A stretch of 64,000 nt of DNA from NCBI GenBank assembly GCA_030390025.1, contig CM059448.1, positions 22,692,001 through 22,756,000 of the forward strand. Reading direction: 5' to 3'. Below, piece by piece: positions 1 through 64,000 of the stretch. The notes beneath the pieces were generated by a model. That model had not been told where the DNA came from. It ran no database searches and saw only the letters and a list, made by a program, of their open reading frames with translations. Position 1 is the stretch's first letter, and each line of letters opens with the position of its first letter. The position numbers were made by a program, and so were the translations under genes. The stretch is from Squalus acanthias. Taxonomy: Eukaryota.

Positions 1-510
1 TTATGGTCATTATCTGAACCAGGGACTGACACTTGGTAACACCACCTTTGGAGAGAAAATTGAGGAGGAATAAAAAGGCTGATTTGCACTGCAATTGTTA
101 AGCAGATTGATCAGCTTTGAGAGCTGCTGATTTAGTCAGAGACTGCGAAAGTCTATGGCTTTAGCCATCCTGCAAAATGATGGGAGCAAGTGGTCACATC
201 AGCAGCCTACACAGAACTTCCATTACAGTCAATCCATTTAATTGTATATTCTAAAAAAAAGATTTGTAGATCACCAAAACTGTTTCAATATAATATATTC
301 ATAACAGAACACAAGGAGGAGAAAAAGATTTCTACCAGACAAGTCCATGATAGTGGAATAACATTTTATCAAATGTTCAGACATTGTGGGAAAGCTCATA
401 ATACCAAAAAGTTTGATAAGTGTTTTGCATAAATTTTTGAAATATTTCCTTTAAAAAAGAGCTGCGTCCATGTTTTCTTTGTTCTACAACTAGCAAACTT
501 TTTAAACTTA

Positions 511-1769: not shown

Positions 1770-2633
1770 TCTGTGTCCTTCCCAGTGTTACTCTCTCAGA
1801 AACACATTAATTAGGCAGAAAGTTCTCTTGCTTATTTCTCGTGGTTAAGTTCAAGTTCTTCCATCAGTCTTGATGGCAAGGCTGCACGGTTTTCATTAAC
1901 AGATCAGTGGATGGGTAATAAATGAATAAACAGTACCAGCCCTTTCCATCAGATGCTAGATGTAGTCCCTTCATAAAGCTAAACTGGTTAATTCCAACAT
2001 CGCCTTTAGTACATCCGAACCACTGCTTTCAAGGTTCTCCGCTTGGTCTTGGTGCTTCTACACAAGAGTGGAGAGAAATCTATGCCAATCTCACACCATC
2101 ACTAATTCTATTTGCAGGTTTGCCAATTCCTTATCTGGTCCACTATCATTTCTTCACAGTCTTGTTTCTAAGACTCTAATGTCTGGAATGCATTTCAAGT
2201 AAGCAATTTCTGTCATTAACCATCTTTTTTAATCTTGCCCCACACTCCAGGCACCACATTTCACTCATAAAATAAAACAGGTAGAATAAGAGTTTCATAT
2301 AATCGGAGTTCGGTTGCAAAGAGATACTGCTTTCTTTCCCTATACGGAAGTTGAATTACACTTTACAAGCAGTTACGCTGTCAGAGCAATTACTTGAAAA
2401 TTAATTTCAGATGAACAATGGAATATTATAAAGCTCTTTTTTGTTATGTGTACCCACACTGCTCATAAAAATGACTCTCTCCCCCTCCCCCCAGTGTAGG
2501 GATAAAATCTTTAATCCAAATAGTACGGTGCAGCCTCCCTTTAGGTCAGTTTGAGTAGGACACAGTGAACATCTTCATCACTACTACATGCTACTGGGGA
2601 AAACTATCACAGAATTAATAATTCAATCAACTA

Positions 2634-3000
2634 CAGGAAACTCTTTATTAACCGGCACCGACGGGACCGGCGTGGTGCCGGTTAATCAAAAAGTCCAGAT
2701 AATGGAGAGTTATATCTCCCAACGTACGAGAGCCCCGTACACACTGACTTACGCCTGCATTCGGAGCTCCGTCTCCCTGGGGACCGCCAGCTGACCATCT
2801 GTCGTGTCCGCTGCCTACCCGGGCTGCACATTCTCCTCCCAATCTACATGCTCCGATACAAGGCAAACGCCTCGGGGTTTTTTTTTTTAAAGTTATTTTT
2901 AAAGGAGAGATGAAGGAAAACCCCGGTTACCTACTCAAGAATTTTGCCGGTTAAGAGAGATTTCCGGTTATTTGGGTGCCGGTTAAAAGAGAGTTTCCTG
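2634..3000. mobile_element. Tc1/mariner-superfamily (Tigger-like) MITE, copy 1
   Basis: TIR CAGGAAACTCTTTATTAACCGGCACC / GGTGCCGGTTAAAAGAGAGTTTCCTG with TA duplication; near-identical copy at 30828-31191. Confidence 0.9.
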
Positions 3001-5379
3001 TATATGGAATGGCAGCCTTCAACGCCTTTAATCAGGGGCTTTTGCTTACATTTTTTGAATCATAAAAAGGGCCAATGTTAAATATCTTGTCAATTTACCC
3101 ACTGCATTCAACTCTTAAAGTGCGCTTACAGTCTAATGACTTGCCCCCTATACACTCACTGAAGTGTCTCTATCACCACTTTATCTTGCTTTATGCTTTA
3201 AAACTACGAGAAGCAGTTTATGAGCAGATGCATTGTTTCAGACTCTGATACAGTATCATGAAGCTCCTCTCCAATGACATCACGAATAAGAATAGTGGAT
3301 TGTCAGCATCACTATCTTACTCATGAGAACCCTACAACTAAAATTTCTGATTTTACACAAAATGCTTGCTCCCAAGCTGCCTTTTGCCAGCTTTTCTTAA
3401 GTATGAAAGAGTAAAAGGTGACTGATTTAGACAGTTGCCATACATTTCCCTTTATAACATTTAAGATTATGGGCAATTTAGAGCTACACATCTGCTTTAA
3501 GAGAACAAAAGATTGTACGAGGATTATATTTTCTACCTACGGTCAATTTATTCACTTCTGTTAACCTTCTTAATGTTGAATTTAAAGAATCAGATGGCCG
3601 AATATTTTAAGTATCAAGTACTTGACGTTTCACAGTTTAAATATTATGTTCTTATTATCTCGCTTCTCTTTAGCTCTGGATGCTCCATGCACTTTCCAGG
3701 CAGGACAGCTGGAAAATGACCTACTCCAGAACTCTCTATTGAACCTTCATCTGGAAGGTGTGTTCGAACAAGTCAGAATGGCTCATCTGGTGATTTTTCC
3801 TCCTTCCTTGTGGCGAAATGTCTAGTTTTTCATAGACACCAGCCTTTGACAGCACAGCTAAGATCAGGAATTTGATACCCAAAGAAATCAGGTGTGGGAG
3901 TCATTGTCCTAATAGACACCAGCATGCTGCACCTTCCTTCCTCCCCTCTACATCCTTTCTCTCAACAGTAATCTTTAGCAAAAGGGTGCAGGGCCCTTCT
4001 AGAGAGTCTAGATGACACATTTCATTCAGAAAAGATGGCATGGACATGCTCCACTGATATTCTGATGAGGGAAGGGAAATCCACACAAACTAAATCCACT
4101 AGCAGGTATTGATTACCATGATGTTGGTCACTGCAGGCACATTATAGTGAAAATAAATCCTTTAGCAACTGTACAGTGGAGCAGTTAGTCAATACAGAAT
4201 GCTTACACAAGGGAATTGCTGAAAAGTTTCCTTTTAAAAAATTAAATCCAGTTACCAGGTAATCAAAAAGAAGCAACTGCATGCACCCAACACAGCAACC
4301 ATCTCCAAGCCGCCAGTGGTAATGAAAACCATTTTGGCAGCTATTTTGCAGTCTAATTAGTGACTGTGAATTGAGATTCCATTCCGGTTTTTGTTTCGCT
4401 GTGTTGTTTGGTATGTACCAATGCATATTAATTGAACCAGCTATGTGTTTAAAGGGGTGTTACTGTATTAAAGGAGCATACTTTGGATATACTTGCCAAA
4501 TAGCTTTTGTGCTCATAAATGAGAGAGATGTCAGTACAAGCAAAAGAATATTTATCTGCCTCTGGCATTAACGGTCAACATCAAACACTCCCACATCAGG
4601 TACAGCGGCGACCAGATACAAGAAAGCCAAGGAAGCACTACCTATTGCATTGGGGTGAATTGCACTTCTCACACTAACCATAGTGGCCTCCCTGGGCAAG
4701 ATTGTCAAGTTAGTGCCAATTTGTGGCCAGTTTTGTAATTTGGGTCCCACACACACCCACCAGCGACTGGGTTCAAGAGCTGTCTTTGTAAACTTCAAAA
4801 AAAATTGTGGCTTATGCATTCTTATACAACTGCAGTCTAACTCGACCTCCCAGGAAACTTGTGGTCCAGTGACAGACCCGGCAGACTAACATATTAGTCA
4901 TTCTATCCCACATGGAGCGAGTGTGAGGTAGGCACTGCTCCCTAAGCAATCGATTTATTGAACAAGTATTAAAATATATTTTTAAAATGATATACTCCAA
5001 AGGGAAAGGTTATATTAAACCTTATGGTGGGTAGTCGAATCATTGCAAGTTCCCAAGCAGTTTTGTAAGAAGCAGTGTTTGAAACAGTATTTTCATAAAC
5101 TCCAGACAATTGACACTTTTCACATCTTTTGATCAGTTAAACTAACCAATTCAGTTGAACCAGACGGAAACCTATATTCTGCACAAATCATCCTGCTGTC
5201 TCGGTGCATATTTGTCAGATTCACTATTTGCTGTGCATTAAAACTGCAGCACTGGGCAATATTTAAATTTGGATCAGAAATTCTACACAGCGGGAGGGAA
5301 AGACATTGATTTGATGGGCTACAATTCTATACTTAAGTCACTTATGTGGAATTGATATAAAAATATGAACTTGGCATGT

Positions 5380-6654: not shown

Positions 6655-7096
6655 GGGTGTCAGCCGTGGCTCAGTTGGCAACACCCTCGGCTCGGAGTCA
6701 GAAGGTCGTGGGTTCAAGACCTACTCCAGAGACTTGAGTGCATAATCTAGACTGACACTCCCAGTGCAGTACTGAGGGAGTGCTAGCTTTCAGATAAGGC
6801 GTTAAACCGACGCCCCATCTGCCCTCTCAGGTGGGCGTAAAAGATCCCATGGCACTATTTCGAAGAAGAGCAGGGGAAATGTCCCCAGTATAATGACCAA
6901 CATTTATCCCTCAACCAATATCACTACAAAAAACTGATTATCTGGTCATTATCACATTGCTGTTTGTGGGAGCTTGCTGTGCGCAAATTGCTACCGCGTT
7001 TCCTACATTAGTGACTACACTTCAAAAGTACCTCATTGGCTGTGAAGCTCTTTGGGACATCCTGATAGGTGCTATATAAATGCAAGTCTTTCTTTC
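6655..7096 (+). mobile_element. Full-length DeuSINE (SacSINE1-like) tRNA SINE
   Basis: A box TGGCTCAGTTGG (6667), B box GGTTCAAGACC (6711), Deu-domain-like AAAGATCCCATGGCACTATTTCGAAGAAGAGCAGGGG, L2-like tail GCTATATAAATGCAAGTCTTTC. Confidence 0.85.
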
Positions 7097-12010: not shown

Positions 12011-12238
12011 TATAGAGAGCTGCCAGCTGAACGTGTCATGCGTCGATTTCTACATCTCCACTTTATATGGTTAATGAAAAGAAAGTGTACAGTATTTTAT
12101 GTTTTTTTTGGTAAAGAGATGCACTTTCTTAAATAACTTAAAACACTGATCCCATTGCAAACTTACTGCATCGAGTGCCTGCAACAAATATCTAAAGTGG
12201 ATAGCGTGCCATGGTAGAGTTACATAAATTACATAAAT

Positions 12239-13169
12239 CGCAGCCTTCAACATGTCATCGATGACGACGAACACCTTGCTAAGGCCATCCCCACGCCTCC
12301 ACTACTCGCCTTCAAGCAGCCGCCTAACCTCAAAAGTACCATCGTTCGCAGCAAATTACCCAGCTTTCAGGAGAACAGCGACCACGACACACCACAACCC
12401 TGCCACGGCAACCTCTGCAAGACATGCCAGATCATGGACACAGATACCGTCATCACACGTGAGGACACTACCCACCAGGTACATGGTACATACTCATGTG
12501 ACTCGGCCAACGTTGTCTACCTGATACGTTGCAGTAAAGGATGCCCCAGAGCATGGTACATCGGCGAGACCATGCAGACACTGAGACAACGTATGAACGG
12601 ACACCCCGCAACAATCGCCAGGCAGGAGGGTTGCCTCCCAGTCGGGGAACACTTCAGCAGTCAAGGGCATTCAGCCTCGGATCTGCGGGTTAGCGTTCTC
12701 CAAGGCGGCCTTCGGGATACACGACAACGCAAAATCATCGAGCAGAAACTGATAGCCAAGTTCCGCACTCATGAGGACGGCCTCAATCGGGATATCGGGT
12801 TCATGTCACGCTACAGAACGTGACTTGACATCGTTGCCGGTCTTTCCAGCTTTTTAAAAAAACAAACCCAAATGGAGAGGATATGCAGCGAGCAGGTGTT
12901 TTGACATGTTGGACCCCCTGGGACACATCTCATTGTCTTGGCTGTGCTCTTAGTATGTCTTTGATGTAGGGATAGATTGAATCTCTGCATTTTCTCTGTG
13001 TTTATATTCTGTGAATTCTGGTAGATTGTCTCACAGTAACTCTACCTGAGGAAGGGGCGACAGCTCCGAAAGCTTGTAATTTTAAATAAATCTGTTGGAC
13101 TATAACCTGGTGTTGTGCGACTTCTCATTTTTGTCCACCCCAGTCCAACGCCGGCATCTCCACATCACA
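12239..13169 (+). mobile_element. Penelope-like retroelement (Neptune-type), 5'-truncated: linker Cys motif, GIY-YIG endonuclease, 3' pseudo-LTR
   Basis: Stop-free frame 12239-12823 with AFKQPPNLK, CHGNLCKTC, NVVYLIRC...WYIGET...RQRMNGH...E...GLN. Flanked by TACATAAAT at 12230-12238 and 13170-13178. Confidence 0.9.
13043..13078 (+). ncRNA. Minimal hammerhead ribozyme motif in the Penelope pseudo-LTR
   Basis: UAC-CUGAGGA-A-GGGGC(GACA)GCUCC-GAA-AGCU-U-GUA: core boxes, stem II, palindromic stem III and a 3-bp stem I. Confidence 0.7.
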
Positions 13170-15021
13170 TACATAAATTACAACACGGAAACAGGCTGTT
13201 CGGCCAATCCAATCCGGACTTTTGTTCATTCTGTACATGAACAGTAGTACTAATCCCTATTTCCCAATTTCTCTTCAATCTTTTTTCAGCAATGTGTCCT
13301 TTGGAACTGAAAGATTAAAAACTAGCATTAGTGTTTTAGGTATTCAATGTAGATGTCAAGTCAGCTTCTTCCCCCTCCATCACCCACAGTGGCACATAGA
13401 ACTCATTGGTCCATTATCAGTTTTCCTTTAACAGAACCAGAAAACAGATTAGTGAATTGGAGGTTGTTAAATTTAAAATGATTTTAAACAACACAAAAAG
13501 AACCGAGTTAGCCTGAAGATGAAAACAAAATCAAACAGCAAAAAAAAAAGGGGACTCTGGAAAGACATAGCAAGACAATCAGCATATATGCAGACAACAG
13601 ATAGTCTGATTCAGGTGGCCTTTCTGAGGTCCACATCCGAAATGTAGACTGTTCTTTCCATAGATGCTGATTGACCTGCTGCATCTTTCTAGCTTTTCAG
13701 TTTTTATTTCAGATTTCCAACATTTAATTTGTCTTCACCAGGAAATAAGTTGTTTAAATCTCTTCTACAGCCTCAAACACAGCAAGTCTCTCAAATCTTG
13801 TCTCTCCAACACACACAGATGCTCTCATCGATGATCACAGCCCTCCTTCTTCCATTCACAGGGTGATCACAGTGCTCTCAGTAATTGTGTAATGGCTGTT
13901 AACTACACCCAACTGTCAAAAATTCAGCTCAATAGATTAAATGTAGATATCACTAAATGAGAATTTTATTAGTGAACATCATGTATATCTGAAGAATTCT
14001 TGTAATATTCTTTCATAAAAATTAGTGTACCACTCTGCAATTAATATTCACATTGCACATGTAACTTCTTTGAAGGCTGAGAGGCATGACTTTTTAAATA
14101 TTCTGTAAGAAGTATCAGTCTGTTTTTTCTTGTGAAATATGTTATTCAAAAGTTATATTGAAAGTTTTTTTTTAATTCTTTGCACACAGGGTCGCTAGAA
14201 TCTCTCCTACAAATTATTGCTTTAAAATGGATCTAGATATTTTCTAGAAAAAGAGGAATATTAAAGCATATGGGCTGCAAGCAGGAAAGGAAGACTAGAC
14301 TAGGTGGCCTATATGGAAAAAAAAATACTGGTGCCAACCTGATGGGATGAATAATCTGTTTCTGTGTTAAGATTCCATGATTCTGTTATTTTAACCAATT
14401 TTCCTCTCCACTAATCTCTTGAAGGCAGTAACATGATAATGGTTGCAGTGGTGCCAGCAGCAATTCTCCAATACCTCATCCAAGTGGCCAATGTTCATGT
14501 GTGAATATCAGCAGGTTACTTTGACTGGCAGTTCATAGCTGAAGTCAATCCTTTCCTTATCCAACAACCACTTTCCATCAGGGATTGCTGCATAGCCATC
14601 AGGAGCTGAAATCCTAGTTGATTTTTCCCCCTCTAGACAAAGAACAAACACATAAATTGTTCCACTCCCATTGTCACCCTGATTCAAATCAATTCAATCA
14701 ATACACCTGTATTACCTGTAGGCAAATGTGGGTGCTGTACCTTCTATACCTAAAGTTAAGTACAGGAAGGCTGATTCCAATGTGGATGGGCTCGTGTGTA
14801 TTTGTGACGTCTTAAGTGGTGATGCAATTTTTTAAAATTTCCTTCAAAAGCAATAAACTTTCAAGACAAAGTCTCAGTACGGAAAAAAAATCAAATAGCC
14901 TGAACATATTTTGCAACAGAGCTTCTTTAAAAAAAAATGCTTTTAACAAACTAGTATTTTTTTTAATCATTCCAGGCATCCAATTACATAAAAGCATTTA
15001 ATCCAGTTACACAAAATTACA

Positions 15022-15105
15022 TTCTGACGAAAGGTTATCGACCTGAAACGTTAACTGTTTCTCTCTCCACAGATGCTGCCGAGTATTTCCAGCATTTTCT
15101 GTTTT
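15022..15105 (+). repeat. Short Penelope-pLTR-derived repeat with a minimal hammerhead motif
   Basis: UU-CUGACGA-A-AGGU(UAUCG)ACCU-GAA-ACGU-U-AA, then TTTCTCTCTCCACAGATGCTGCC...CAGCATTTTCTG. Related copies at about 13520-13730, 16740-16915, 20323-20415, 34668-34858 and 52276-52485. Confidence 0.7.
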
Positions 15106-15610
15106 AATCCAATTACATAAGATATGTTAATTGAGTTTGGAACCCAGAATGTGCAGAATTGACTCCACTCTTATTGCAGAGTAAAAACACACACTTTGGA
15201 CAGTGTAAAAAAAAATGGAATGAAAATTATGATTTTCTGCAAATGCAATTTAGAGCTTTTTCCATTTGATCATCTAATCCCATTACAGCACATTCTTCCA
15301 GCAGTGATGAAACCAGCAATGCTAAAGCTACACAAATGCAGAGCATACATGTGAAGTTAATTTTATCTGCTAATAAATTATTGCCTTGCTTTATTTGGCA
15401 AAGACCAAAATAAATACATTTACAATCAACATTTTTTGATAGTATTGGGGGTTAATTCATAAGTTTTCAAACTGGATACCTTGGGCCATAGGAGATCTAC
15501 ATGGTCATTTGATTTCTGTCTATCCGGAGCCAGGCATGCACCATGCTGGAAATAGTGTCTGAAGAATTCTGCATTTTATTAGACTTAGCAATTGATTATT
15601 TTTCTTTGGG

Positions 15611-16510: not shown

Positions 16511-19500
16511 AAGCTTCCTGCTGGTTGATCCACAGCAGAACATCAGCATTGGAAACTGATCAGCTGTCCCAACTGGAAGAAAATGGTGGTGAATATTGAT
16601 GCACTGTGTACACAAAACACTTACACAAAAACACTTACACATAGAAAGATACACAAGTTTTATTAATAGAAATCTTTCTTGGATTGCAAGATGATTTCAT
16701 AAAGTTCACAACCAGATTAAACTGAATTATAAAAAAAAAATACTAGAAATCTGAAATAGAAAATGCTAAATACACAGCAAGTCAGTCTTCTGTAAAGAGC
16801 AAGGTTACGATACTTCAGGTATGTATCCTTCATCAGGACCTAAGTAAACACCAGGCACTTTTCTTTTTACAGATGCTGATTGACCAACTCTGCATTTCCA
16901 GCAGCTATTTTTTTCATGAAACACTTCATACAAAGCCTTCTAGATACAGAGCTGGCATATATTTAAGATGTTCCAGAATTGTGAGGCATGTAAAAGTTAA
17001 CAGCATCTGCCCAGAGGAAGGCAAAGAAACCAGTTCATCCTTGCCAACTCACAAGGACATAGTATAAATTCTGGAAACATTATCTACCAGCATATAGACT
17101 TTAATATATTCAAAAGTCTGGCCATCAAACACTGTTACTTTGTCAGCTATCCAAGGAGTCTAATCCTAAATCAATTGCACCAATTTACATCAAGCTCAGA
17201 CATTCATCGCAACTGTAAATTTATCAGCAAGCAGTTAATGTTGAATTATTGCAAAATAATGAACTTTGAACCTGTCAATTAACCCATTTACTAATTTGCA
17301 TACTGAAAGTTTTAGTGCTATGATTTTAAGCTTAAACAATTGTTCACACATGACTGTTCTAACTGATCACTGGCAAGAAAGGGTTAATTCATGCAGTATC
17401 TTGTGCAGCTGCTGATGGCAGGTTGGTAGCATAAACGCTAATATAATCCAAATCAGTTGATGCAAGACAATTCAGCATGCAAAATTTAGGCATTAACTCC
17501 TAGGCATAAACTGGTTCGTAAACTCCAGATGGCTCCTTGACGCCATGTTAAGGTGAAGGATTAATCTGGATCCCTTGATGAATTCTCTTTTCAGGCTACG
17601 GATCCCAATGTTACAGGATCCAGATTCAGTCCTGTCAGTGCTAAATTGAAGAACAAACTTGCTTTTATATAGCATCTTTGACATGTTGCCATGCCAGTCA
17701 ACAATTTCTATTGGACAACATTGATGTAGGCAAGTGCCACAGCCAATTTGCACATAGCAGATCCCAGAAACAGCAGAGAAATTAATTTATTTTGGTGGTA
17801 GCAGTTGCATGTCAAGACACCAGGCGAAATCCCCTGCTCTTCAAATAGAGCCACTAGATTTTTTACATCCACTTGAGCGGGAAGACAGGGCTCTGGAGGT
17901 ACCATCTTTCAGATAAAAATTTAACCCAATGGTGCAGCATTCCCTCCGTTCTGCATTCAAGTGTTAGATTATTTGCACAAATTCTGGACTTGGGCAGCAC
18001 TGACAAGTTCTGCCACTGAGCTAAGCTGAAACTTATGTAAGCTAATGCAGAGTGGAGGAGCAATCAAGTCCCAGGGGAAACTGGTCAGCTAAGCCAGTGT
18101 TCCCACTCTTCATCACTATCCACTGACCCCTACTGAAAGTACCTGCATAGATAAGAGCAAAAACAGGACACTGTCAAACCCCTCAAATTAATTTTGCCCC
18201 TTGGTCAAGGTACGGGGCGTCAATACTATAACTACATAACTATCTCAGTAAGTCAAAAGCTTTCAGCAGGAGGGGAGGGAAAAAAATCAAACTAACCATA
18301 TACTGATCTATAGTTTTAGAAATTCAATTGGATTTATATGCCATTTTAGAGCAACACTTTTGCAGCCCAGCACCTTCCTGATGGCTCATCTGCCTAACTT
18401 TGCTACATCATTGGTAGTGTTAGCATGAATACATATTTTAATAATTTAAAACAGTTGGGAGCAATTACAAGTGTATAACTGCAAAAGATTTCAACTTAGT
18501 AACCACAGTATATGCTGCTAGAGATTCAAAACAAGCACATATTCTGAAACACTTCATCTGTATGCCAACATAAATTTACTTTTAACTATTATGGCTTTGT
18601 TGTAGTGCACCAGTTCAAAAATATAGCTTTCTTTATCCATAGAGGAGTTGTTAGATAGTATTTATATGTGCAGTAAAAGCAATGTTTCATATGCACCAAA
18701 ACATCTGAAGCTACTTAAGCTTTGAGTTTTGTGCTGTGTACAAATAGTCATTTTATTTTGTAACAAGGAAGCATTACAGTTCAGACAAATCTGAAGCTGG
18801 TTTACAGCTAGTTTGTAAAGCATTTTAAAGGGCAGGAATATAATCTCCTAGTGGTCAATTGAAATCCACCATCCAATACTGTACCACGAGACAACACCTT
18901 GAACAAATTACTCTACTGGAATGGATTAGTGTTCATTAATTTAGAAAAAAAAGTTGGAGATTCAACAAGTTATTTAGCTAGCTGGACTACAATAAAAGTA
19001 GCATCATGTTGACATACAGATGAAGTGTTTTAGAATATGTGCTTGTTTTGAATCTCTAGCAGTATCTACTGTGGTTACCAAGTTGAAATCCTTCGCAATT
19101 ATACACTTGTAACTGCTCCCAACTGTTAAGTTATTTGAAATATATATTTATGCTAACCAATGATGAGGCAAAGTTAGACAGTTGAGTCGCCAGGAAGGAA
19201 CACTGAGCTGGTGTAGGATTGCATAAGCAGTTTCTCAACCACAAAAACAAATTTCAAGAATTCATCCTGCAAGAGAGCATCTCATGTTGAGAAATTCTGT
19301 ACTTGTTTTGCATCACCCTATGCAAAGCACCCTCAGCTTCAAAGTAGTAACGGGATTTGAAATTTAAACAAAACCAAAAAGATGAAATTGCTCAAGAAAT
19401 ATTCCAAGTATTTTCCTTTAGCTGGTCTGTTCTCAAAATTAGTGGGAAGTTTAGTGTTTGAGGCATGTTTACATCTAAACTTATTTGCAGAATAGAAAAT

Positions 19501-20008: not shown

Positions 20009-20206
20009 CTAGTTTACACCAGCTGCCGTCAGCCAACCATTGCAGACATTGTAGTCATTGGAGCGACAGTACTTGTTAAATTTCTCTTTTAGGTGCTGCC
20101 GGTATTGTTCTCGGTTGATGTAGAAAGATTGGTTATTTGTCATAAATGCCTGTATTTCATCTTGGGTAATGAAAGTCTCTTCCTCAGAAGTACATTCAGA
20201 TTCTTC
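20009..20206 (-). CDS. GGNBP2: GGNBP2 last coding exon (EESECTSEEETFITQDEIQAFM...GWLTAAGVN*)
   Basis: Acceptor gattttcag, TAG at 20011-20009; 198 nt. Read by hand. Confidence 0.95.
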   Translation of the reverse strand, partial: EESECTSEEETFITQDEIQAFMTNNQSFYINREQYRQHLKEKFNKYCRSNDYNVCNGWLTAAGVN

Positions 20207-23200
20207 CTGAAAATCAAACCAGCAAATTACAACATTGATTTACAGCAAAGACTTGTGTACTACAAATCTTGTTAACTAGCATGCAGCAGCATTAGTAAAA
20301 GAACAGGACCTTGACTAAATATTAGGTCATCAACCTGAAACGTTAACACTGTTTCTCTCTCCACAGATGCTGCCTGACCCACTGAGTATTTACAGCATTT
20401 TTGGTTTCTATTTTAGGACCTTGACTAACTTTATTTGGAACATGGGGTTATTCAATGAGATTACAATGACTAGTGCATTGTAAAGTCACAGCAAACATTT
20501 TGCATTTGCAGCTATAAAACTGCCTTGCTAATAACAGAACAAATTACATAATTAAATGTAGAAAAAAAGTGATTTTTCTATCTAGTGAGATTATACAAGG
20601 TTTACTAGAAACTACAAATGAAACTTACGCAACAGACGCTGCACTACAAAAGGAATTTAATGTATAAAGTACTTTGACATGTTTCAATGTGACATGGTAC
20701 TGTGTAAACAAATGTTCAGTTGTCTCAAACTCACCTAGCCTGCTTCAATAGGTTTTCCTGGTAATTTGTTCCACAAGTCTAAAATCTATAGGTGATAAAA
20801 GTTCCACCTGGCTTCTCTGCTGGGCTTCATTCCTTGCAGCTTCCTATTATAATATTTCCCCTCTACTAGTTAAACCTTTTTCCAGTGAATAGGTGTTTAG
20901 AAGTATAATAAAAGGTCCTGTTGACCAATATTTACTTAAGTTAGAACTTCTCCACAGTTATGATGAAACCCACTAAAAACAACTAAGAATTAGAGAATAC
21001 TTTATAGGATGCAATTAGAGATTTCACTGGATGGAAGTTAAATAATTTAACTGCTCAATTAACTCATTTATTAAACTCATCTGAACATTATTTATAGTCC
21101 ATCCCCACATTATCCATCTCAACATTCAATGTGGCAACAGCATTATGGAAAAAAACGATCTCAATTTTCCAACATGAGAACTGCTGGTCTGTCTGGGGTG
21201 GCCCTTGCTGGCTGAACTGCAAGATTCAAATTCCAATTGGAAAAGTTTAAAATTGATGCATCAAGATAAAGACTGGAACTGTAGCAACCAACAGTATTAG
21301 CAATGTCCCAAAAATAGCAATGAGCTGGTTTTTTTTTTAAAGTGGTAGTGGTTTCCAAGTAAGGATTGAGGGGTACGGTGATAAGGCAGGTAGGTGGGGT
21401 TGATATACAGGAAAAATGTGACTTAATAGAAACTTCCAGGACCTCTGGGATCTTTGTAGCATCTGGAAGACAGTACCTGTGACAACACAGCAATTCTTTA
21501 GTACTGCACTGAAGTGCCAGCCTAGATTAGGTGCTCAAATTCTACAGTGGGATTTGAACCCACCATCTTCTGACGAGATGAGTGAATTACCACTTATCCA
21601 AGCTGATGCTTAGTCGGCATGCTCGTTGGGCCTAATACAGTTCCTAAAATTTTTATAAATACCACAGATTTGGTAGTGCTTAAAGCATGTAGCTGAGCTA
21701 AATAAAATTAGTTTGCAGCTATTTTGCATTAGAGGTGCAGGAAAAAAATTCCCAAACCTGCTAATCACAAGGCTTGGGAGTAAAAAGCACATGTAAACAA
21801 GTTAACATTTCTCATGAGACAATGATTGAGAAAACGTCCTGACAAGTGCCGCTGAATCTAGTATTTTAATTCAATGTTAGCAGATGTTAGTATTTCATTT
21901 GGCCAAATTAGAATTAGCTCCATCTAGTGATGAGCTGCTACACAAGATAAGATAAAAGTAATGGTCAGGTAAAACAGATTTGAATACATTAAAATACTGA
22001 AGACCCATGCATCAAAACTAGCCAATGCCCCTCGCCCTGTCTCTCCCTGCCCCTCCCCCATTCCATTGCAGCTATGACACTGGCATCTACCTCACCATGT
22101 GGAAAATCTCATGTTCTATGCACTAAACAGGAACAGTTTAGCCCAAGTAATTAGCACCTGATCAGTATTCTCCCAATTAGCAGTGATGGAAGGAGTAGTT
22201 AACAGTATCACAAAGCGACATCTTTTCAACAATGATCTGCTCACCAATGCTTAGTTTGGGTTCTGCCAGAACTATCTGGTTCTAGACCAAGGCACAGCCT
22301 TAAACCAAGCATGGACACAAGAGCCAAAGATGAGAGAATAGTTGATAGAATGTGTCACCAAGGAGCTGAAGCAGAACAAAGGGAAAACCATCCAGTAGAT
22401 GGAATTATAACTGATTTAAAAGGAAGATGGCCATGGCTGTTGGAAGCCAATCAATGCACCCTCAAGATATAACTGCAGTAGTTCCTCAGCTGCTTTATCA
22501 ATGATCTCGCTGCTTATTCTACAGCATTCAGCTCCATTCATAACTCTGATAAATGAAGTAGCAAGACCAGAGTAGCAACCAGGCTTGTGCTGACGAGTGG
22601 TAGCTAACATTCTCACCGCATGTGCCAGGTAAAGACCAAATCCAACAAGAGGCAGGCAAACGACCACCTCCTCATCCTCAATTACACCAAGCCCTCACCA
22701 ACGACCAGAAGTTTAACTGGAGCAGCCATACCAACAATGTGGCTACAAGAGTGGGGTAGAGGGTTAGACTCTGATAAGTGGTTTACCTCCTGACCCCTCA
22801 AAATTTCAAGTCAGGATTGTGATGGAATACACAACACTCCCAAGTTCCACACCACCCAGGACAAAGCAGTTTGCTTGATCAGCACTCCTGTCACTGTTGG
22901 TGCACTGTGGCTGCATTATGTACTATATACAGGCTGCTCTGCAGCACCTCACCAAGTTTACTTCAACTGCACCACTCAGTCCTGCAACCTCTACCACTAA
23001 CAAGGACAAAAGGAGCAATATCATGGGAATGCTACTACCAAGTTTCCTTCCAAGTCACAACATCCTGATGGACATGTGCTGCCGTTCCTTAATAGTCACT
23101 AGGTCAAAATACTGGAATTTCCTACCCAACATATGGGAGCAGCATCAGCACAAGGACAGCAGAGGTTCAAAGGAGAAGGCCCACCACCTTCAGGAGAACT

Positions 23201-26200: not shown

Positions 26201-29200
26201 TCTAGTTTAAAGCTAAACAGAAATCTTTCCAGTTTAATTTCTAAAATGTCAGCCCCAGACTTGTCCATTAATTTAAACAAGATTGTCAAGGCAATAAGAT
26301 GTTTCCATAAATGTTCCCCAAGAATTTTGTTACAGCACTAACCTGTTTCATCATGATTGCAGATACCTTCAGTACAAGCTACGTCTGAGCCTTCTCGGGA
26401 ACCAGTCTCACTGCCCTCCATGCTTGACGAGTAACCACAGTCACTGCCATTACAATGTGGAGATAAACCTGAGTGAAAAAAAACATATCGGAGAAACTTC
26501 AATGCAACTTGGGTCCACAATACCACTTTAAAGATTAAATCTTGGTTGGTTGTATATCAGTATTTCATCCTGTCAGTTTAGTATTGGGTACAACTGTTTG
26601 TTCATTATCGTCACTATTTACTGGGCTGGTGATGGTGGTTTGAAGTTTAAACTTGTTTATTTCTTCAGTTATCTTCTTCACCTTTGTCCATCAAGTTTGG
26701 TACAAATATACCATTATTTTAATACATAAGACAGTCTGGAATCTGAGGGCTTTGGCTCCAGAGGGACATTGCTGGATTTGTAACAGCAGCCTGGGGTATT
26801 GTCTCTTCAGTTGTTGCCAGTCCTACAACCAGCCTTAGTACGCAACATCTGTCCAAACAGTCAGCTTGGTAGTAATTGAATGAGTCAGAAGACTGCAGGT
26901 TGAAGGCCCACTTTAGGCAGAGCCGAAGGCATGCTACATCAGGAGTTGGCATCCAAAATCAGATGGAGCAATAAACAGAGGCCCTGTCTGTTTGTTCAAA
27001 TAGACATTAAAAGATCCTATAGCAGTAGTGAAAGAGCAGGGAGTTATCCCAGTGTCCTGACCAACATTCTTCCCCAATGACCACCACCAAAAATAGATTA
27101 ATCGGTGCAGAAATCATCTGCTGCAATTACCTATATGACACTTCAAAGAATTCATTATAATTAGAGTACTGTAGGACATTAAGATAAAAGGTACTGTACA
27201 AATTCAATTATTTTTCAATTTCTAAACAAAGGCCAAAACAAGTACAGCAAACACCCAGAAACAGACACATATGCCATGATCTCACTGGGTCGGCACTTGT
27301 CAAAAAAAAGGCATTAGTAAAGTTAGTCACCCTCGTCTCTGACAGAATAATCTACTACCATTGGTGGATTTTACACCATAAAGCTTCTCCTCAGAATCAC
27401 CAAGATATTCTTCTGCAAACATTGGGAACAACAGTGTACATACCTTTCTTTGTTTTAGGTGATCCAAGTAGATTTTCACTGCCAGGGCATGTGCATGAGG
27501 TACTTTCATTTGTAACAATTACTTCAACTCTACCATTAGCATCTTCCAGGCTGCCACAGTCTTTACAGCTACTCTCTACGGTCTCAGATGTTGTCTGGAA
27601 TGACATTATATATAGCATCCAATTAAAAAAGATTGCCCTAGAAAACGATTCCATTGAGTGAATATCTCCCAGAGGACTGGAGAGCAGCTAAAAAGGAGAC
27701 TTGTTCCAGGTAATTACAGGTCTGTAAGTTTAACATCTGTGAAGAAGAAAAAAATTAGAAGCAGCCAACATGGATTTCAGAAAGGAAGGTCGTCCTTGAC
27801 CAACCTGAGTTTTAAGGAGGTGGCAGATATAGTGAATGGAGTAAATGCAGTGGATGTGGTGCACATGGACTTTCAAAAGCCTTTGACAAGGTACCACACA
27901 GGAGACCATTGGAGAAGACTTAGGGGTATGAAATTAGGGTGAAGGTAGAAAACTGAATTAAAAACTGATTAGAAGGGAGGACAGAGTTAAAGGCAGTTTC
28001 AGTGGCTGGAAGTGGGCAGCAGTGCCCCACAGGGTTCTGTTAAGACTTCATTGTGTACATCAATGATTTGGATATACGGTTAGAGGGAGTGGTATCCAAA
28101 TTTGTAGACAATACTAAAATAAGAGGCATAGTAATATTTCAAGACCAAAGAAACTGCAAGCAGATAGTGATAAGATAAGAAATGGGCAAAAAAAAACCTG
28201 GCAGATGGAATTAAATATCATTAAGTGTGAGGTGATACAGTTCAGCTGGGTGATGTTGAAGAGCAGAGGGATTTGGAGGGGTGGATTCAGGTTCACAAGA
28301 CTTTAAAAGCTGCACCTCAAGTGGATATGACCATACAAAAGCTAATGGAATACTGGGATTTACAAGAGGTACAGAATATAAAAGGCAAGATGCAATAGTG
28401 AATCTATGTAAAACCATAGTAAGATTGCAATTGAAGTACTGAGTGCAGTTTTGGGCTCTACAATGTAGGGCAGATGTCAAGGCAATCAAGGGTACATACA
28501 GCACAAATTCTCTAGGATGCTGCCTGGTATGACAATATACAAATACAAAGGCAAACTTGAAAAAACTGGTGCTGTTTTCATTGAATAGGAGATGATGGGG
28601 TGATTTGGTAGAGATGTTTAAATTCTGAAGAAATGGGACAGGGTAAATAGAAAAACTGTTTCCAGTGGTTGAGGGATCTAAAGCAAGGTTCATGGATAAA
28701 AGATTATGTGCAAGAGATTTAGGATGGAGAAACTTTTATAGTTGCGAGGTTGTGGAATACACTACCAAAGTTAGTGTTTGGAGCAGAAATCATGTCAACA
28801 TTTAAGAATAGGTTAGACAGACATTTGAAGGAAATGGATAGTGATATGGGTACAGAGCATGCTCATCAGATTAGGACTACTGCTTGTGTGGAATATAAAC
28901 ACCAACGTGGACTGGTTGAGTAAAAAGCTCTACTTTTGTTTGTTGTAACTTCCAATCAATTCTGCTTTTCAGTGCCTTGGTAACATAGAATCCACCAGTC
29001 ATCATGTCCTTGGACATTAGTGAACAGGCAGTCCCAATTAGGCAAGTGCGACAAAATATTTTCCAGCAATTATCATCCCGAGACCTGAAAGGTTGGACAC
29101 CATGCATACAAAACTAGTATGCAAGAATATAATGTTTGATGTCCCTTAACAATCAGTACACCACCATAGTAAGAGGCATATTCTGGTTAATGATTCCATA

Positions 29201-32200: not shown

Positions 32201-35200
32201 AGACTATATGTTATACTGCATCAGGAGTGAAGAACTATTAGATTCAATTTAGCATTCAGATGACACGGTGCAACACACCAATCTACAATGCAGAACAGAT
32301 TTAATGGCCTGGATTTCAGATTTTTCCTACACCTATTTTTTGGGCACTTTCTATGGGAGCCATTCCCAGAATTTTCCATCAGAAGTGATGTCAGATGCTT
32401 AATATGTCCACTCATTTGGGCTGGCATTTTCAAATTAGGTTAATGACAGAAATACATAAACTATGCAGTTTTGTTCATTAACACCTTGCCAACACCAGGT
32501 GTCAAGAATATTGTTGCATTACTGGCATCTGAACTTGCCAAGGAAGCAGAGGGGGATTTAAAACAAAGGCCTTAGAGTCTACTGCAATCAACTACACCAT
32601 GAAAAAAATTGTTTTAACAACTTTCGTTACAACTACCACGCTGCCCTGCAAGTGCCATGACAACTTTCCTATTTTCTTAGCCCCAACCAAACCAGTGAGC
32701 TGTTCAATACCACAGAAGATCCAGAAATAACCCCTAAAAAGCCAAAGTGTTGCATGATATTTTTTTCCTTCAAATTGGGATCTTTTCCATTTAGCTAATC
32801 AACCTCAGCTCTCCCAGGTAAAAAACAAAACCTCCTTTACTGCACCTTAACAAGGCACCACAACTTTACATTATGATTTTCCCCACTTTCTAGACCAGCC
32901 ACCATTATAACACTAGCTGTATTGCCAATTCGTGGAGTTCTGGACCGATGCCTATGATAGAGAATGAATCCTCTCTAAAAGAGCCTTTAAGCCACCCTCC
33001 AAATGCCATCCACAACTTCCTTTTTGACCATGGAAACAGGCAACCTGCTCCCATGACTTAGTGTTGCTGGTGTGGCACACAGATGTTCTCAGTTTCCTCA
33101 CTCAAGAGAGCAGCCTCCCTAAATGACCTGGTTCAGATCTAGATTTCTCTGCATGGAAGTTACAAACAAATTCAGTCAATTACTGCTGCAGCCTGAAAAT
33201 AGAAGCAATTATTGAATTCAGCACAATTATTTCACACTTGCATCATTCTTAGAGAAAAAAAGAGATTTAAAAAAACAAAAGCGCTAGATAGCCCACTCTA
33301 GCAAATTACATACTCATACCCTCCTGCGAACTCTGGCTCAGCACGGCCCAATAGATGCGCAATGAAGTCAGTCTCACAGCAAACATGGATATGTCGTTCG
33401 TGGGGACAGCAACGTAGTCCCTCATAGAGAGCTGCACAGTAGCCCTTTTCTTTGCTGCAATCTAATTCCCCAATGAGAATGTTGTATGCTCGCAGCACTT
33501 TATTTTTACAATCTGTGCAAAACCTGCAATAAAAAGAAACGTGAACAACCACAAATTTAACATTCATTACAGTTGAGCAGATTAATGCTGGGACTCTTTC
33601 CTCAATACTCAACAGCTTTTGACTAATTTACATCTAATTCATTTCAATAGTAAATTCTGCACAAAATAACATGCAGCATCCCCTATATTACAAACCTGTG
33701 TTTCCGTAGATAAGTCTCTAGTGTTTCCAAAAGACAACTGGAGTCAATTAATACTACTTCATCCCTACATTCCTGGGACATTAGTTCCCACACATCCATC
33801 CAGCAGCCCCTGTTAATAGAAACAAAGACTATGATTTTTGCCACACAAATGCTGTAATTTACAAAAAGCAGCTAGACCAGTTAAAATACACACCACTAGA
33901 ATGGGCATGAATGCTAGATAATAATTATTCAAACTTGCTACAAATCTGGATTGATGTTTTCCAGAATCAGTTAAGTTATAATCTCAGAACAAAAATACTG
34001 CTTTCCATATACAATAGTGCCACTGTATTTATTTGCACCCATCAGATACTGAATACCCATAACAAGGGGAAAAAATACTTGAAACATCCATAGAAACATT
34101 TCTGATTCATGCTATAATGCATGGAGCTGAACAATTAAATTTGCTATTAAATGATAACTTGGTAGCTCAAGATTTCCAATCCCAAGGAAGACTTCGATGT
34201 CCTGGGAGTGATGGGGAGCATCACCCAATGTCCACTGTGGTGAAGCAATTAAAAAAAGCTAGATACAAAACCAGAACAGAATACAAAATTACAGAAGTTT
34301 TGCCAAGTTTTACAAACCACTGTTCAGACCACTCTGTTCAGCTTTGCTTACATATTAAAAGCTTACATTAGGATGGGTATTAAAAACAAAACAAAAAATG
34401 TAAATAAGATGGGCTCCAAGGAAGGATTAAAGTTGAAGTTTAAAGTCTAGAAAAGATGGTGGGTATGGGGAGGGTGTGGGAAGAGAAGGAAAAAACATTT
34501 AAGAAATAAGCTTGCATTTATATAGCACTTTTCACATCTTCAGGACATCCCAAAGCACTTCAGAGTCAATTAATTATTTTGAAGAGTATTCATTTGTGAT
34601 TTGGGCAAACACAGCAAGGCCCCACAAATAGCAATGAGATAAATGACCAAATAATCTGTTAGTGTAACAAAAACAGAAAATGCCGAAACACTCAGCATGT
34701 CAGGCACAGTATCTATGGAGAAGCTGGTTCTGATGAATGGAAAGTGCCTGAAAGGTTAAACTTTGCTTCTCTCCACAGATGCCATTCTGACTTGCTGAAT
34801 GTTTCCAACATCTTCTGCTTTTGTTTCAGATTTCCAGCATCTACAGTATTTTCTTTCATTTGTTTTAGTGGTGTTGGCTGAGCCTGGATTATGTGCTCAA
34901 GTCTCTGGAGTGGGACTTGAACACACAACCTTCTAACTCAGAAACGAGCGTGCCACTGACCCAAAGTAAATCTATATTAATTCAAAATATGCTAAGAAAG
35001 CAGGACTTAAGGAAGATCAAATTTAGAACAGATCAGGTAAACCTTATTGAATGATAAATGGTTAGAATAATCTACCAAAATAGAGGTTATTCAAAACACA
35101 ATTTAATGCCATGGGAGTGCTAACATACTGGAGAAATGAGCTTCAATCGACTAAATGGCTTTTTCTCAAATCAATTACTTTAACTTGAGACTCTTAACTA

Positions 35201-50200: not shown

Positions 50201-53200
50201 GGTAAAAGCAAGCCTTACGCCTGCTTTTACCAGGCGCAAGAATTGGAAGTGTTTTCTGCAGAGGTCCTGCTCCAGGGCAGCCAGAGGATCTGTCAAGAGC
50301 TTTCTTGACAGATCGGAAATGACAGTTACCAGCACATGCGCCGTGCATGCCTAAAACCGGCATTTCCGTTGGCCCGACGGGTGAGTACACACCCCTAGGG
50401 AACGGAATTTCTGCCCCATTGTTTCTATTATTTTATATAGTATTAGAGTAAGGCCAATGAGCCTGCAGTTAGTTGAGTTCTATCTGGCCACCTTATAAAA
50501 TACCGGTAGCAAGTTTGCTCACTTCCAAACCTGCATAACTTCTCCCCTACTTAACATTGCCTTCCATCTGAAAAAAAAGTTACCTACGAATTCACTACTT
50601 TCCATTCAATTATTCCAACCTGCAACTTAATTATAAATTGGGAATGTTTGGAATCATTCGTTCCAGGATTACCCTGGTTATAAAGGTTTAACCACACATT
50701 TGGACTGCAAGAGCACAATATGAAAATGACAGCACTTCCTAAACATAGGACATAACATTTGATAGTATGCAGTCTACTTCTCAAATGAAAAGTTGCTTCA
50801 TTCAAATTTTTAAGCACTAAATTCCCAACGTGTTATTTATATTACTTAGCTTGTTACTGGACAAATTAAATTATTTTAGCATAAAAACTTTGAATTCTGT
50901 AGTTAATTCAGCATTAAAACACCAAGCACCAAGATGTCCACTTCAAGAATCCACAACTGTGCCCGTCTTGCTAAAGACTAAATCGATTTAGCACTGATTA
51001 AGTTGATAAATGATCAAAGCAACTTCAAGTCTAGAAAATTTAGTAGTGAGGACACTGACCAAGCCCAGAAAGGTACCAGATTATCACAGCTAAGCCAGAT
51101 CGTGGACACCAACATCTACTTGCATGCACTTTCTGCAAGTGTTCGTGGCTCTTGATCAGGAGCAGAAAGCCTGGCCAATTCTCCCATCCTCATCTTAATG
51201 CCAGAGGCTAATTAGTGTCCCTATGCCACACTGGCTGAGATCTGCCAACCTGTGCATGTCAGAGATTGAACCTGGGATTTCCTGTTCAGTATGGCTCATT
51301 TCCACACTTACTTGTAGAAAACCAGACAAACCTTCATTGAGCTCTTTAGATCAAAGTCATAAGTGACTTGCCAGGTAGCCTAATAAAGGCAGAATAACCT
51401 TAATCTGAAGCAATTCATAAAAAGGTTTTCAACAAGCATTTCCTTCATCAAATCAGGCCTACCTGCTTAAACAATACCACCTGGCCTCAAAGACAGTGCT
51501 GCATCTTTTTCAGCCACAAACACAAAAACTACCCTATCAAATATACTCAGTCACTATTTTATTAAAAGATTCAGGCGTAAACAAAACAGAGCCACTCTTA
51601 GGAGCAAGGGTATGTTTGAAGGAGTGCATCTCATTCAACCCAAGGAGTGGGTTACCTGGTCATTCTGAAAAGACAGGTAGAGGAACATGAAATGCCATCC
51701 TAATCACATGGTTTAATCTTCATATACTGTCATCTACACTTGGAACTAAATTGGGGGGGAGGGGGTGGGCAGGCAGGGGAAGGAGTTCAGCAGAAAGGAA
51801 ACTGTCTCCAATAGGCTACATAACTATGGCATTAAGCCAGAATCACACCATTTCCCCACCATAAAATCGCAAACATCTCTGCTACAATGCAAGCACAAAC
51901 ATGAGCCGCAATGGGTCAGAAATTTCAGGATGTAAGCTAGGATCTTTGCAGCATAATCTTTATGGCGAACAAATTTTTTTCCCCTAGAGTTTAAAGGAGC
52001 TCAGTAACACCATTAACAAATTACAATTACACAGCTAACTGAAGCAGTGAAACAACCATAATGCTCGACACTTCCTGGCCAGCCCAGGAATGAGGTGACC
52101 AAACCATTGAATGTTGAGAATCTCTATCACGAGTGCAATGGGCTGACAAAGCCATACAAGTAATCACTAACATTACATGCTTTTACTGTAGCAACAAAAA
52201 TCACAAACATGCCATAGTAACCGATAGTGCTGCTCTTACCATGTACACAAGCACAGTAAAAAAAAGTTTAAATATCATACCTTGAAGAAAATGTAAAATA
52301 CTGCAGACGCTGAAAATCTCACCAGAAAATCCTGGAAACACTCAGGTCAGGTAGTAAATGTGGAGAAACATGGAGATAACACTTCAGGTTGATTGATGCA
52401 AGGTGATCAACCTGAAGCATTAACCCCATGTTTCTCTCCACAAATACTACCTGACCTGCTGACTATTTCTAGCAGTTTCTGCTTATACTTCAAAGATTTG
52501 ACTTGATGGGAAAAGATGTTACATGAAGGCGGCACTTTTGACAATGCTGATTTTCAAAAACCATGTATTATCACTACAATTAACACTCCTAAATCTAGCT
52601 TCTTAGACATAAACCACCAATAGCAGCATGGACAAAAAAAACCTTCACCTTTGATTTTGTCTGGGTTATAGGTTCGCCTCTTATCCCACTCCATTTATTT
52701 TGTGAAAAAGATGGCCAGAAATGTACTGGGGGGGGGGGAATGCACCCATCAGTGACCACAAGGACCTACAAAACACGTGACACTAGATTTCAAAGTCAAT
52801 TCATTGTTTGTGAAGTGCATTGGGACATCCTAAAGAAGTGTACAGTGCTATATAAATGCACATTCCTTATTTAAAGAAATACACTGCATCTGAACTATTC
52901 AGATAGGGAGATGCCAGGTCCAATTCATAGCCTGCAATCAGTTAGCTAATCTCAACAGACCTGCTGCTGTAAACGTAACTAGCCTCAATGAAAATCAGGC
53001 CTCCTGCGTCCTCCAATGGCTACCACCATTATTAAAGGAGACAGTAACGGGACATTTGGATAATCATAATTTAATAGGACAAAGTCAGCATGGTTTTATG
53101 AAGGGGAAGTCATGTTTGACAAATTTGCTGGAGTTCTTTGAGGAAGTAACACACAGGGTGGATAAAGGGGAACCAGTGGATGTGGTGTATTTAGACTTCC

Positions 53201-62400: not shown

Positions 62401-62663
62401 ACTGTGCAAAGTAGCAACAAAATATTGTTCATGGTAGTGGTTACATATATATATATATATAACAAAGTCTTTACCGAAGGAGGCCACCCGTATGCACATT
62501 AGCCCGTGCATTTACTATAATAAACCCATGGTGGAGTATGCTTTAAAAAAGACAAACTGAAGAATTTGAATTAGTAATTTCGCTGCTGCGCTCGCCCAGT
62601 GGCCTCACCACCCCTTACAAAGTTGGCAGAGTACAGCTAGACTGTATATATGCCGAGACAAGA

Positions 62664-63470
62664 CAAGACTTGCATTTATATACCTCCCAATTGACTTTAC
62701 AGCCAATTAAGTACTTTTGAAGCACAGTCACTGTTGTAATGTAGGAAAAGCAATTTGTGCACAGCAAGGTCCCACAGACAGTAATGTGATAATGATAATC
62801 CGTTATTGGTTGAAGAATAAATATTGGCCAAGACGCTGGAGAGAACTCCCCATCTCTTCTTTGAATCGCGCCCTGGCATCTTTTATGTCCACCTGAGAGG
62901 GCAGACATCAGTTTAACATCTCATCCGAAAGACTGCCCATCCAACAATGCAGCACTTCACTGGAATGTCAGTATAGATTTTGTGCTCATATCCCTGAAGT
63001 GGGACTTGAACCCACAACCTCTGACTCAGAGACAAGAAGATTTGCATTTATATAAGCACCTTTCACAACCTCAGGATTTCCCAAAGTGCTTTACAGCCAA
63101 TTAAGTACTTCTGCAGTGCAGTCACTGTTGTAATGCAGGAAACAGCAGCCAATTTGTGCAGAGCAAGGTTCTACAGACAGCAATGTGATAATGATAATCC
63201 GTTATTAGGTGTTGGTTGAAGAATAAATATTGGCCAAGACACCAGAGAGAACTCCCCATCTCTTCTTTGAATAGTGCCCTGGGATCTTTTATGTCCACCT
63301 GAGAGGACAGATGGGGCCTCAATTTAACATCTCATCCAAGAAACTGCACATCCAACAGTACTCCAATGGAATGTCAGCTTAGAGTTTGTGCTCAAGTCCC
63401 TGGGGTGGGACTTGAACCCACAACCATCTGACTCAGAGACAAGAATGCTACCAACTGAGCCACGGCTGAC
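62664..63470 (-). mobile_element. Two tandem DeuSINE (SacSINE1-like) copies
   Basis: Reverse complement of the 6655-7096 family occurs twice (about 62664-63037 and 63039-63470). Other partial copies at about 17640-18030, 21400-21610, 26900-27205, 36990-37100, 48950-49175 and 56920-57255. Confidence 0.85.
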
Positions 63471-64000
63471 ACCACTTACTAGGTACATGCACAGAAATGC
63501 TAAATTTCCTTTTTCGGTAGAGGAGAGAGACTCCCACTTTTTAAATAAAGTCGGGCCCTCTGCCTTTTCTCGGAGTTTTCACTGGTGAAGCTGTGCACGG
63601 TAGCAGATTTGCAGACCAGGCCCAGCTCCCCAATAATTAGGAATAATAAAATAGATGGCAATCCGGAGCCAGCGGCAGGATGATAGAGGCTACAGACATT
63701 GCAACAGACTGCATTGAATTTGTGCCAGAGGTGGTTAAAATGGATGCAAAGGAGTCAAGTTATGGAAAGAGAGGTCCAATTTCACACGAGAAAATCTTTG
63801 GTGGACAAGATCCAGTCAAAGAAGCCATTAGGCAGAGGGAACCCTGGAGGGAGCTTGTAAGCCACCGGTATTAGGGAAAACAGAAGGAATGTCAGTCGGA
63901 GAAGTTAAGGGAAGGCAGTTTCTGTGTGACTGGACCTTACTCCGAGTGCAGCCAACTTTCCTGGCTTCCCTAGCTATGGAGCTAGGTAGAAAATAAATTG

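Follow-up and report, generated by a model that had tools for sequence, protein, structure and literature searches.

A 64,000-nucleotide stretch of the Squalus acanthias genome (the window; contig CM059448.1, 22,692,001-22,756,000) contains two hammerhead motifs, and the questions that they raise are what kind of element carries them and in which state, cut or uncut, the RNA of that element was copied. The explanation that we consider very probable is that they are hammerhead folds at the 3' pseudo-LTR (pLTR) ends of two coding families of Penelope-like elements (PLEs), here called A and B, that the copies in the window are truncated, and that the templates were mostly uncut.

Both motifs (Table 1) agree letter for letter with an earlier sequence-only reading of this DNA, including CUGANGA, GAAA, the extra A and U17, and both have the CUGANGA/GAAA core and a UH cut site in type I order. 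That reading gave stem II of the B motif as 4 bp with a 5-nt loop, which has to be corrected to 5 bp, including a U·G pair, with an AUC triloop. The window copy of B has 2 bp of stem I left versus 4 bp in the family majority, and carries a 9-bp deletion. A pairing descriptor consisting of the core, a stem II of at least 4 bp, a palindromic stem III and 2 bp of stem I, with the extra nucleotide optional, matched the window at exactly two places, the motifs at 13043 and 15022. The same descriptor gave no match in 200 simulated windows (order-2 Markov), one match in a simulated sample of 10 x 800 kb (8 Mb) and none on the reversed sequence; both motifs exceed chance expectation. An Rfam scan of the window detected neither motif, even at E<=10, because such minimal folds have no Rfam model.

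Table 1. Features of families A and B in the window, numbered from its first nucleotide.
Feature	Position	Strand	Remarks
Target-site duplication of A insertion, 13 bp, left copy	12221..12233	+	right copy 13170..13182
A ORF, 3' part	12238..12823	+	CX4CX2C linker and GIY-YIG-type endonuclease; 5'-truncated, no reverse transcriptase; open frame 12218-12823
A pLTR/3' UTR and tail	12824..13167	+	stops 1-2 nt short of the next unit's ATG position
Hammerhead A, minimal type I	13043..13078	+	stem III AGCU; extra A after core; stem II base G-C
Hammerhead A, stem I	13043-45 and 13076-78	+	UAC and GUA
Hammerhead A, 5' core and extra A	13046-52 and 13053	+	CUGAGGA and A
Hammerhead A, stem II	13054-67	+	GGGGC/GACA/GCUCC, followed by GAA
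Hammerhead A, stem III and U17	13071-74 and 13075	+	AGCU and U
Hammerhead A, predicted cut	13075/13076	+	
B insertion	13557..13726	.	decayed; degenerate inverted arm; hammerhead gone
Direct repeat around the 15022 B insertion, 14 bp	14978-14991 and 15107-15120		
B insertion, short	15022..15106	+	hammerhead and tail; 9-bp internal deletion
Hammerhead B, minimal type I	15022..15054	+	stem III ACGU; extra A; stem II base A-U
Hammerhead B, 5' strand of stem I	15022-23	+	UU
Hammerhead B, 5' core and extra A	15024-30 and 15031	+	CUGACGA and A
Hammerhead B, stem II	15032-44	+	followed by GAA
Hammerhead B, stem III and U17	15048-51 and 15052	+	ACGU and U, followed by AA
Hammerhead B, predicted cut	15052/15053	+	
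B copy, old and decayed	16741..16840	-	starts at 5' edge of hammerhead
B copy	20324..20416	+	starts within stem II; 14-bp target-site duplication
B ends, head-to-head inverted pair	34663..34855	.	core kept; stem II decayed
B ends, head-to-head inverted pair	52293..52494	.	decayed

Abundance in the genome was estimated from 140 evenly spaced 10-kb stretches of the chromosome-scale contigs (1,398,300 nt; unplaced contigs left out). Intact motifs occurred in 32 stretches of this 1.4-Mb sample and numbered 44 (23 of A type, 21 of B type), corresponding to about 1.2x10^5 intact motifs per 3.7-Gb genome (bootstrap 0.8-1.6x10^5). Tail-bearing pieces numbered 81 for B and 34 for A, or about 2x10^5 and 0.9x10^5 per genome, and the very high copy number that had been proposed for B is borne out by this count of B ends. 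The extra A before stem II was found in all 44 descriptor matches, although the descriptor permitted none, whereas the palindromic stem III (AGCU in 23/44, ACGU in 21/44) was demanded by the descriptor and is not independent.

The sequence-only reading had also described the stems as fully covarying, which is overstated. For each family we took 15 plus-strand copies that pass the descriptor, namely the one in the window and 14 of the 23 (A) or 21 (B) in the sample. In these sets only one of nine pairs is compensatory within each family: in A this pair is U-A in 7 and C-G in 5 copies (2 of 500 shuffles score as high), in B the change occurs in one sequence (49 of 500 shuffles reach the score), and each family has one wobble swap in addition. 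Since the pLTR DNA of the two families does not align, the contrast between A and B stems is one between two unalignable sequences. The length and sequence of loop II and the base at N7 vary freely and the core is constant, a pattern that would fit selection on the fold in master elements. The G10.1-C11.1 pair is G-C in 13/13 copies of A; in B it is A-U in 7 and G·U in 4 of 11. In 47 B copies the non-CpG mismatch was 4.9% in the core versus 10.0% in the tail (p=0.0002), a difference that we do not take as selection on inserted copies because copies that align through the core are overrepresented in the set and subfamilies differ in the tail.

With regard to folding, ViennaRNA did not give the double hammerhead as the lowest-energy dimer in any of the four copies tested; the energies of the double hammerhead versus the lowest dimer were -17.1 versus -26.4 kcal/mol for window A and +0.9 versus -19.3 kcal/mol for window B. 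The B core can also pair with stem III and the cut site (15025-15029 with 15049-15053; L091:726-764), thereby lengthening stem II. This alternative fold, predicted to be inactive, lies below the hammerhead in energy and requires C at N7, the majority base in B. The calculated energies would fit weak or assisted activity and, equally, no activity.

As judged by its sequence, family A is a young, protein-coding PLE family with a reverse transcriptase (RT) followed by a GIY-YIG endonuclease, and the window copy is a 5'-truncated end of it. The insertion (12238-13167) comprises the last 194 codons of the ORF, the 3' UTR, the hammerhead and the tail; its coding fragment is 96-98% identical to longer genomic copies that reach into the RT, and the best 40 genomic matches of the family are 92-100% identical. 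At locus L213 an intact 892-aa ORF, matching Pfam RVT_1 at E=2e-6, lies between two hammerheads 3.03 kb apart. Pfam returned no GIY-YIG match for family A, the window fragment included; the motif is plain by eye and aligns with family B, where Pfam does match. A fixed 5' end of the family at 12238 was considered and rejected, this position being only the truncation point of the window copy, and longer copies exist. A further observation is an AATAAA hexamer (13083-13088 in the window), located 7-8 nt behind the predicted A cut and kept across A subfamilies. If this hexamer is used, transcripts would end before the start sites of reverse transcription.

Family B has the RT and GIY-YIG domains in the same order as A, in broken pieces in the copies examined. 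Many of the 30 best B loci reach upstream to staggered lengths, and in the longest copies the upstream frames read as a GIY-YIG domain and, further up, as RT sequence. Of 30 B loci fetched with the GIY-YIG domain, 23, as well as others, are among the listed tblastn matches to the A protein, at about 30% and spanning RT and endonuclease. Pfam matches on separate B copies (GIY-YIG at E=5e-4 and 7e-4, RVT_1 at E=3e-5) were all below the curated cut-offs. Locus L203 consists of a hammerhead, a broken ORF and a second hammerhead, the hammerheads being 3.19 kb apart; the 40 B loci inspected, 30 of them short and 10 longer, include none with an intact ORF. The CX4CX2C linker before the endonuclease is present in both the A and B proteins, and the host elements are likely PLEs of the Neptune type, with RT, CX4CX2C linker and C-terminal GIY-YIG domain. 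The assignment of the motifs to PLE-type minimal hammerheads is upheld by their type I core and by their pLTR position around a PLE ORF at L213 and L203. As had been proposed, no fewer than two lineages in this genome bear hammerheads; A and B each comprise subfamilies.

A profile search of the window for B gave eight pieces that represent six insertions, in line with the roughly six copies counted before; the fold is kept in one, the copy at 15022, which is also the only one to pass the descriptor. The A and B copies in the window are likely inert, 5'-truncated insertions. The 15022 copy has a complex 5' junction: 30 nt of target-like sequence resembling the right flank lie between the left 14-bp repeat and the element (14978-15021).

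To describe where copies begin and end, positions were counted from the first core base, which places the predicted cut at about +29. For B, 100 profile matches were obtained, of which 82 had a tail and 81 of these lay away from the edge of a stretch. The 5' ends fell at -8..+2 in 24/81 B copies (one arm placed by hand), in 13/34 A copies and in 7 of 30 young B copies that had been fetched by tail sequence alone. Expressed as a hazard, B copies end at 5.5% per nt at -8..+2, compared with 1.1% in the fold, 0.9% directly before the peak and 0.2-0.3% at greater distances upstream. The peak was also seen in solo B copies (15/62, p=7e-5) and in B copies with target-site duplications (6/14); the p-values are optimistic because the -8..+2 interval was picked after seeing the first 800 kb. 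Of the 13 ends in the A peak, 11 belong to arms of head-to-head pairs, and four other A arms were placed by hand.

The cut site itself left no such mark. Ends at +27..32 numbered three for B, one for young B and one for A, showing no excess over neighbouring positions (B 3 versus 16, p=0.76; young B 1 versus 7; A 1 versus 2), although a class of a few percent could go unseen at this sample size. Thirty A copies, counting the locus that served as query, contain the ORF start. The cut site is spanned by 22 of them and no 5' end falls at +14..+35; 19 reach -16 or beyond and one begins at -8..+4. Four of these 30 (L184, L186, L193 and L196) begin at -125..-136, which may reflect another favoured 5' end or a break in the subfamily alignment. 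The majority of copies include the predicted cut site. Because the 5' ends pile up at the 5' edge of the ribozyme with no excess at the cut, we conclude that the templates were mostly uncut. Contigs of presumed RNA runs from other organisms have a 50-85-fold step in depth just behind the A cut, compared with a 7-fold step in genomic copy number, but contigs cannot show starts and we do not take this step as evidence.

The 3' ends of B form two groups about 30 nt apart, at +90..97 (26/81) and +124..127 (34/81). Those of A also form two groups, and the two end points are 30-40 nt apart in both families. Target-site duplications and head-to-head pairs are frequent in both, and 5' truncation and partial tandems occur. 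Near-perfect palindromes of 200-260 bp, in which two hammerhead arms stand head to head at stem I (L074, L101, L106, L129, L245, L263, L246, L297 and L298), could be mistaken for MITEs. Among the papers listed by literature searches, none reported a 5'-end pile-up or shark hammerheads; the supplements of PMC4209133 and of the preprint cited below, which possibly hold cartilaginous-fish motifs, were outside the search.

The following course of events would account for such copies. The element protein would nick AT-rich DNA, and target-primed reverse transcription would begin on uncut RNA from either of two sites that lie about 65-95 nt behind the ribozyme, an internal start modelled on a lizard Poseidon element studied in vitro (PMC11167929; see also PMC4209133). 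Those cDNAs that stop just past the ribozyme would give the 90-130 bp 'short repeat'. The fold would be maintained by selection in the master elements, while cleavage is predicted to be slow and to occur only as a dimer via the palindromic stem III or with the element protein. Cut RNAs would leave the insertion pathway, and cleavage would not be the source of the template 5' end.

Three other causes of the 5'-end pile-up were weighed. One that is possible rather than probable is that the peak is the transcription start, with short copies being complete, strong-stop-like cDNAs of the 5' leader and longer ones originating in the 3' repeat or through strand transfer from one repeat to the other. 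A hazard that in both families is about 5% per nt at the peak and at most about 1% on its flanks speaks for it, as do the peak in solo B copies and in copies with target-site duplications, and the B sequence at the peak, which fits what we take to be a pyrimidine-purine initiator pattern. However, there is no excess of an extra G before the ends (5/15 versus 12/47), the ends spread over about 11 nt, and nearly all A copies with the ORF start begin elsewhere, as given above; the A peak, moreover, consists mostly of head-to-head arms, where stem complementarity could fix the junction. The fuller version, in which transcripts start at the first stem of the hammerhead and reverse transcription from the 5' repeat yields 90-130 nt that either integrate or jump to the 3' repeat in a retrovirus-like manner, appears rather unlikely. 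In this strong-stop reading the roughly 10^5 short insertions would be such cDNAs; if true, it would explain the pseudo-LTRs and the head-to-head pairs, and the ribozyme would be a 5'-leader switch that takes cut RNAs out of the insertion pathway.

Equally possible rather than probable is an origin of the pile-up in the structure of the ribozyme or in a bound protein, acting through RT drop-off, cDNA fold-back or pairing with a second cDNA via the stems. The hazard is already raised within the fold (about 1% per nt at +3..+26 versus 0.2-0.3% far upstream), and at many of the peak ends two arms join head to head within palindromic or stem-complementary sequence. A structure would be expected to halt the RT at its 3' foot, however, and no excess was seen at the 3' foot of this fold; solo copies with target-site duplications also share the peak. 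Very unlikely is a 3' splice site at the AG of B stem I, with the short copies made from spliced RNA, since the branch-point-like motif, pyrimidine tract and AG overlapping stem I in B (L057, L034 and L054) and the D. virilis intron ending at helix I (PMC4209133) are outweighed by the lack of spliced copies, by four solo copies starting at -4..-1 that have no common upstream exon sequence, by ends scattering to both sides of the AG and by a family A peak that has no AG at that place.

The sequence-only reading had taken B for a short non-autonomous, retrozyme-like family, a view that did not stand. In the form considered here, the short copies would propagate themselves as a non-autonomous family, either a non-LTR retrozyme or SINE-like, with circular RNAs made by hammerhead cleavage and copied in trans; this is hardly credible and, for the bulk of B copies, already largely refuted. 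The shortness of 58 of the 81 sampled B ends (start at -20 or later) and the copy number of about 2x10^5 would suit such a family, and tandem retrozymes derived from PLE pLTRs, one cartilaginous fish included, are reported in a preprint (10.64898/2026.07.22.740005). Yet the longer B copies are coding and L203 has a hammerhead on either side of its broken ORF, no head-to-tail arrays of short B units occur in the 1.4-Mb sample or in the window, and the copy ends are ragged and do not fit cut-to-cut monomers. Short and long copies are, furthermore, intermixed on a tree of weak support (99 columns) built from 43 of the 82 tailed copies, 28 short and 15 long, with identity of at least 88% and the region covered. 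Every subfamily contains both kinds with common subfamily markers, and the short/long label changes 15 times versus 12.7 when shuffled, all 500 shuffles being as low. It is because short and long copies mix in every subfamily that we regard the short B repeat as a by-product of the same coding masters.

The preferred reading, that of hammerheads at the pLTR ends of two coding PLE families with mostly uncut templates, can be compared with known systems. The kind of element and its hammerhead arrangement are already published, minimal hammerheads (min-HHR) in metazoan PLE pLTRs having been described in 2014, with Xena, Poseidon and Neptune elements of fish among them (Cervera and De la Pena 2014, PMC4209133); A and B add members. 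Shared with these min-HHR are the type I fold, the CUGANGA/GAAA core, the extra nucleotide, the palindromic stem III and the short stem I, as well as a spacing of about 3 kb between pLTRs, truncated copies that mostly bear a single motif, and inverted pairs. In contrast to them, stem II is 5 bp here and its basal pair in family B is A-U or G·U instead of G-C; the G10.1-C11.1 pair is highly conserved in min-HHR, not obligatory (PMC4209133). The abundance also differs, with about 1.2x10^5 intact motifs here versus about 4,000 in coelacanth and about 9,000 in Xenopus (PMC4209133), i.e. on the order of 10^5 minimal hammerheads or over ten times those counts, a rough comparison as the descriptors differ.

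The Poseidon element of Anolis carolinensis, PAc, has uncut RNA as its main template (Frangieh et al. 2024, PMC11167929). The two groups of 3' ends found here match its two RT start sites (30-40 nt tail), and uncut templates, AT-rich targets and a hammerhead in the pLTR are common to both. The ORF of PAc starts inside the ribozyme (PMC11167929), whereas the family A ATG is about 90 nt behind the cut. Both families also differ from the Poseidon element in their Neptune-type CX4CX2C linker, a CX2-5CxxC linker between RT and endonuclease being a mark of Neptune/Nematis (Craig et al. 2021, PMC8557442). A Poseidon assignment of both families was replaced by the Neptune type on this linker motif alone. 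Other features in common with Neptune PLEs are the order of RT, Cys-rich linker and C-terminal GIY-YIG domain, 5' truncation, partial tandems, inverted copies and the tail (PMC8557442). With non-LTR retrozymes the families share the type I hammerhead, the relation to PLE pLTRs and the high copy number (Li et al. 2026 preprint; PMC7229834); retrozymes are, however, non-coding head-to-tail units, each with a hammerhead, whereas B consists of dispersed ends of a coding element.

With regard to the surroundings, a minus-strand gene that ends near 20,010 and another that starts at 11,652 flank the two motifs, which are on the + strand, so that the ribozymes run antisense to these host genes. We take these genes to be GGNBP2-like and DHRS11-like, respectively, the latter (short-chain dehydrogenase-like) being the one that starts at 11,652. 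The young A insertion (12221-13182) is about 590 bp upstream of the ATG of this gene, in its likely promoter region. Other repeats in the window are LINE reverse transcriptase fragments at 52894-54292 and 27658-28735 (two overlapping frames, 269 and 252 aa), presumably of CR1/L2 type; a 380-bp repeat at 2631-3009 and 30825-31200, whose copies are 94% identical and have 28-bp terminal inverted repeats and which is likely a non-autonomous DNA transposon; and a SINE-like repeat at 62660-63473, in two to three head-to-tail copies that are 85% identical, also present at 6656-7094.

Taken as a fossil record of the RNA templates, the copy ends point to mostly uncut RNA and to cDNAs that stop at the front edge of the ribozyme. 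The finding bears on the role of the hammerhead in PLEs, and family A makes this role testable because it is young and has an intact ORF.
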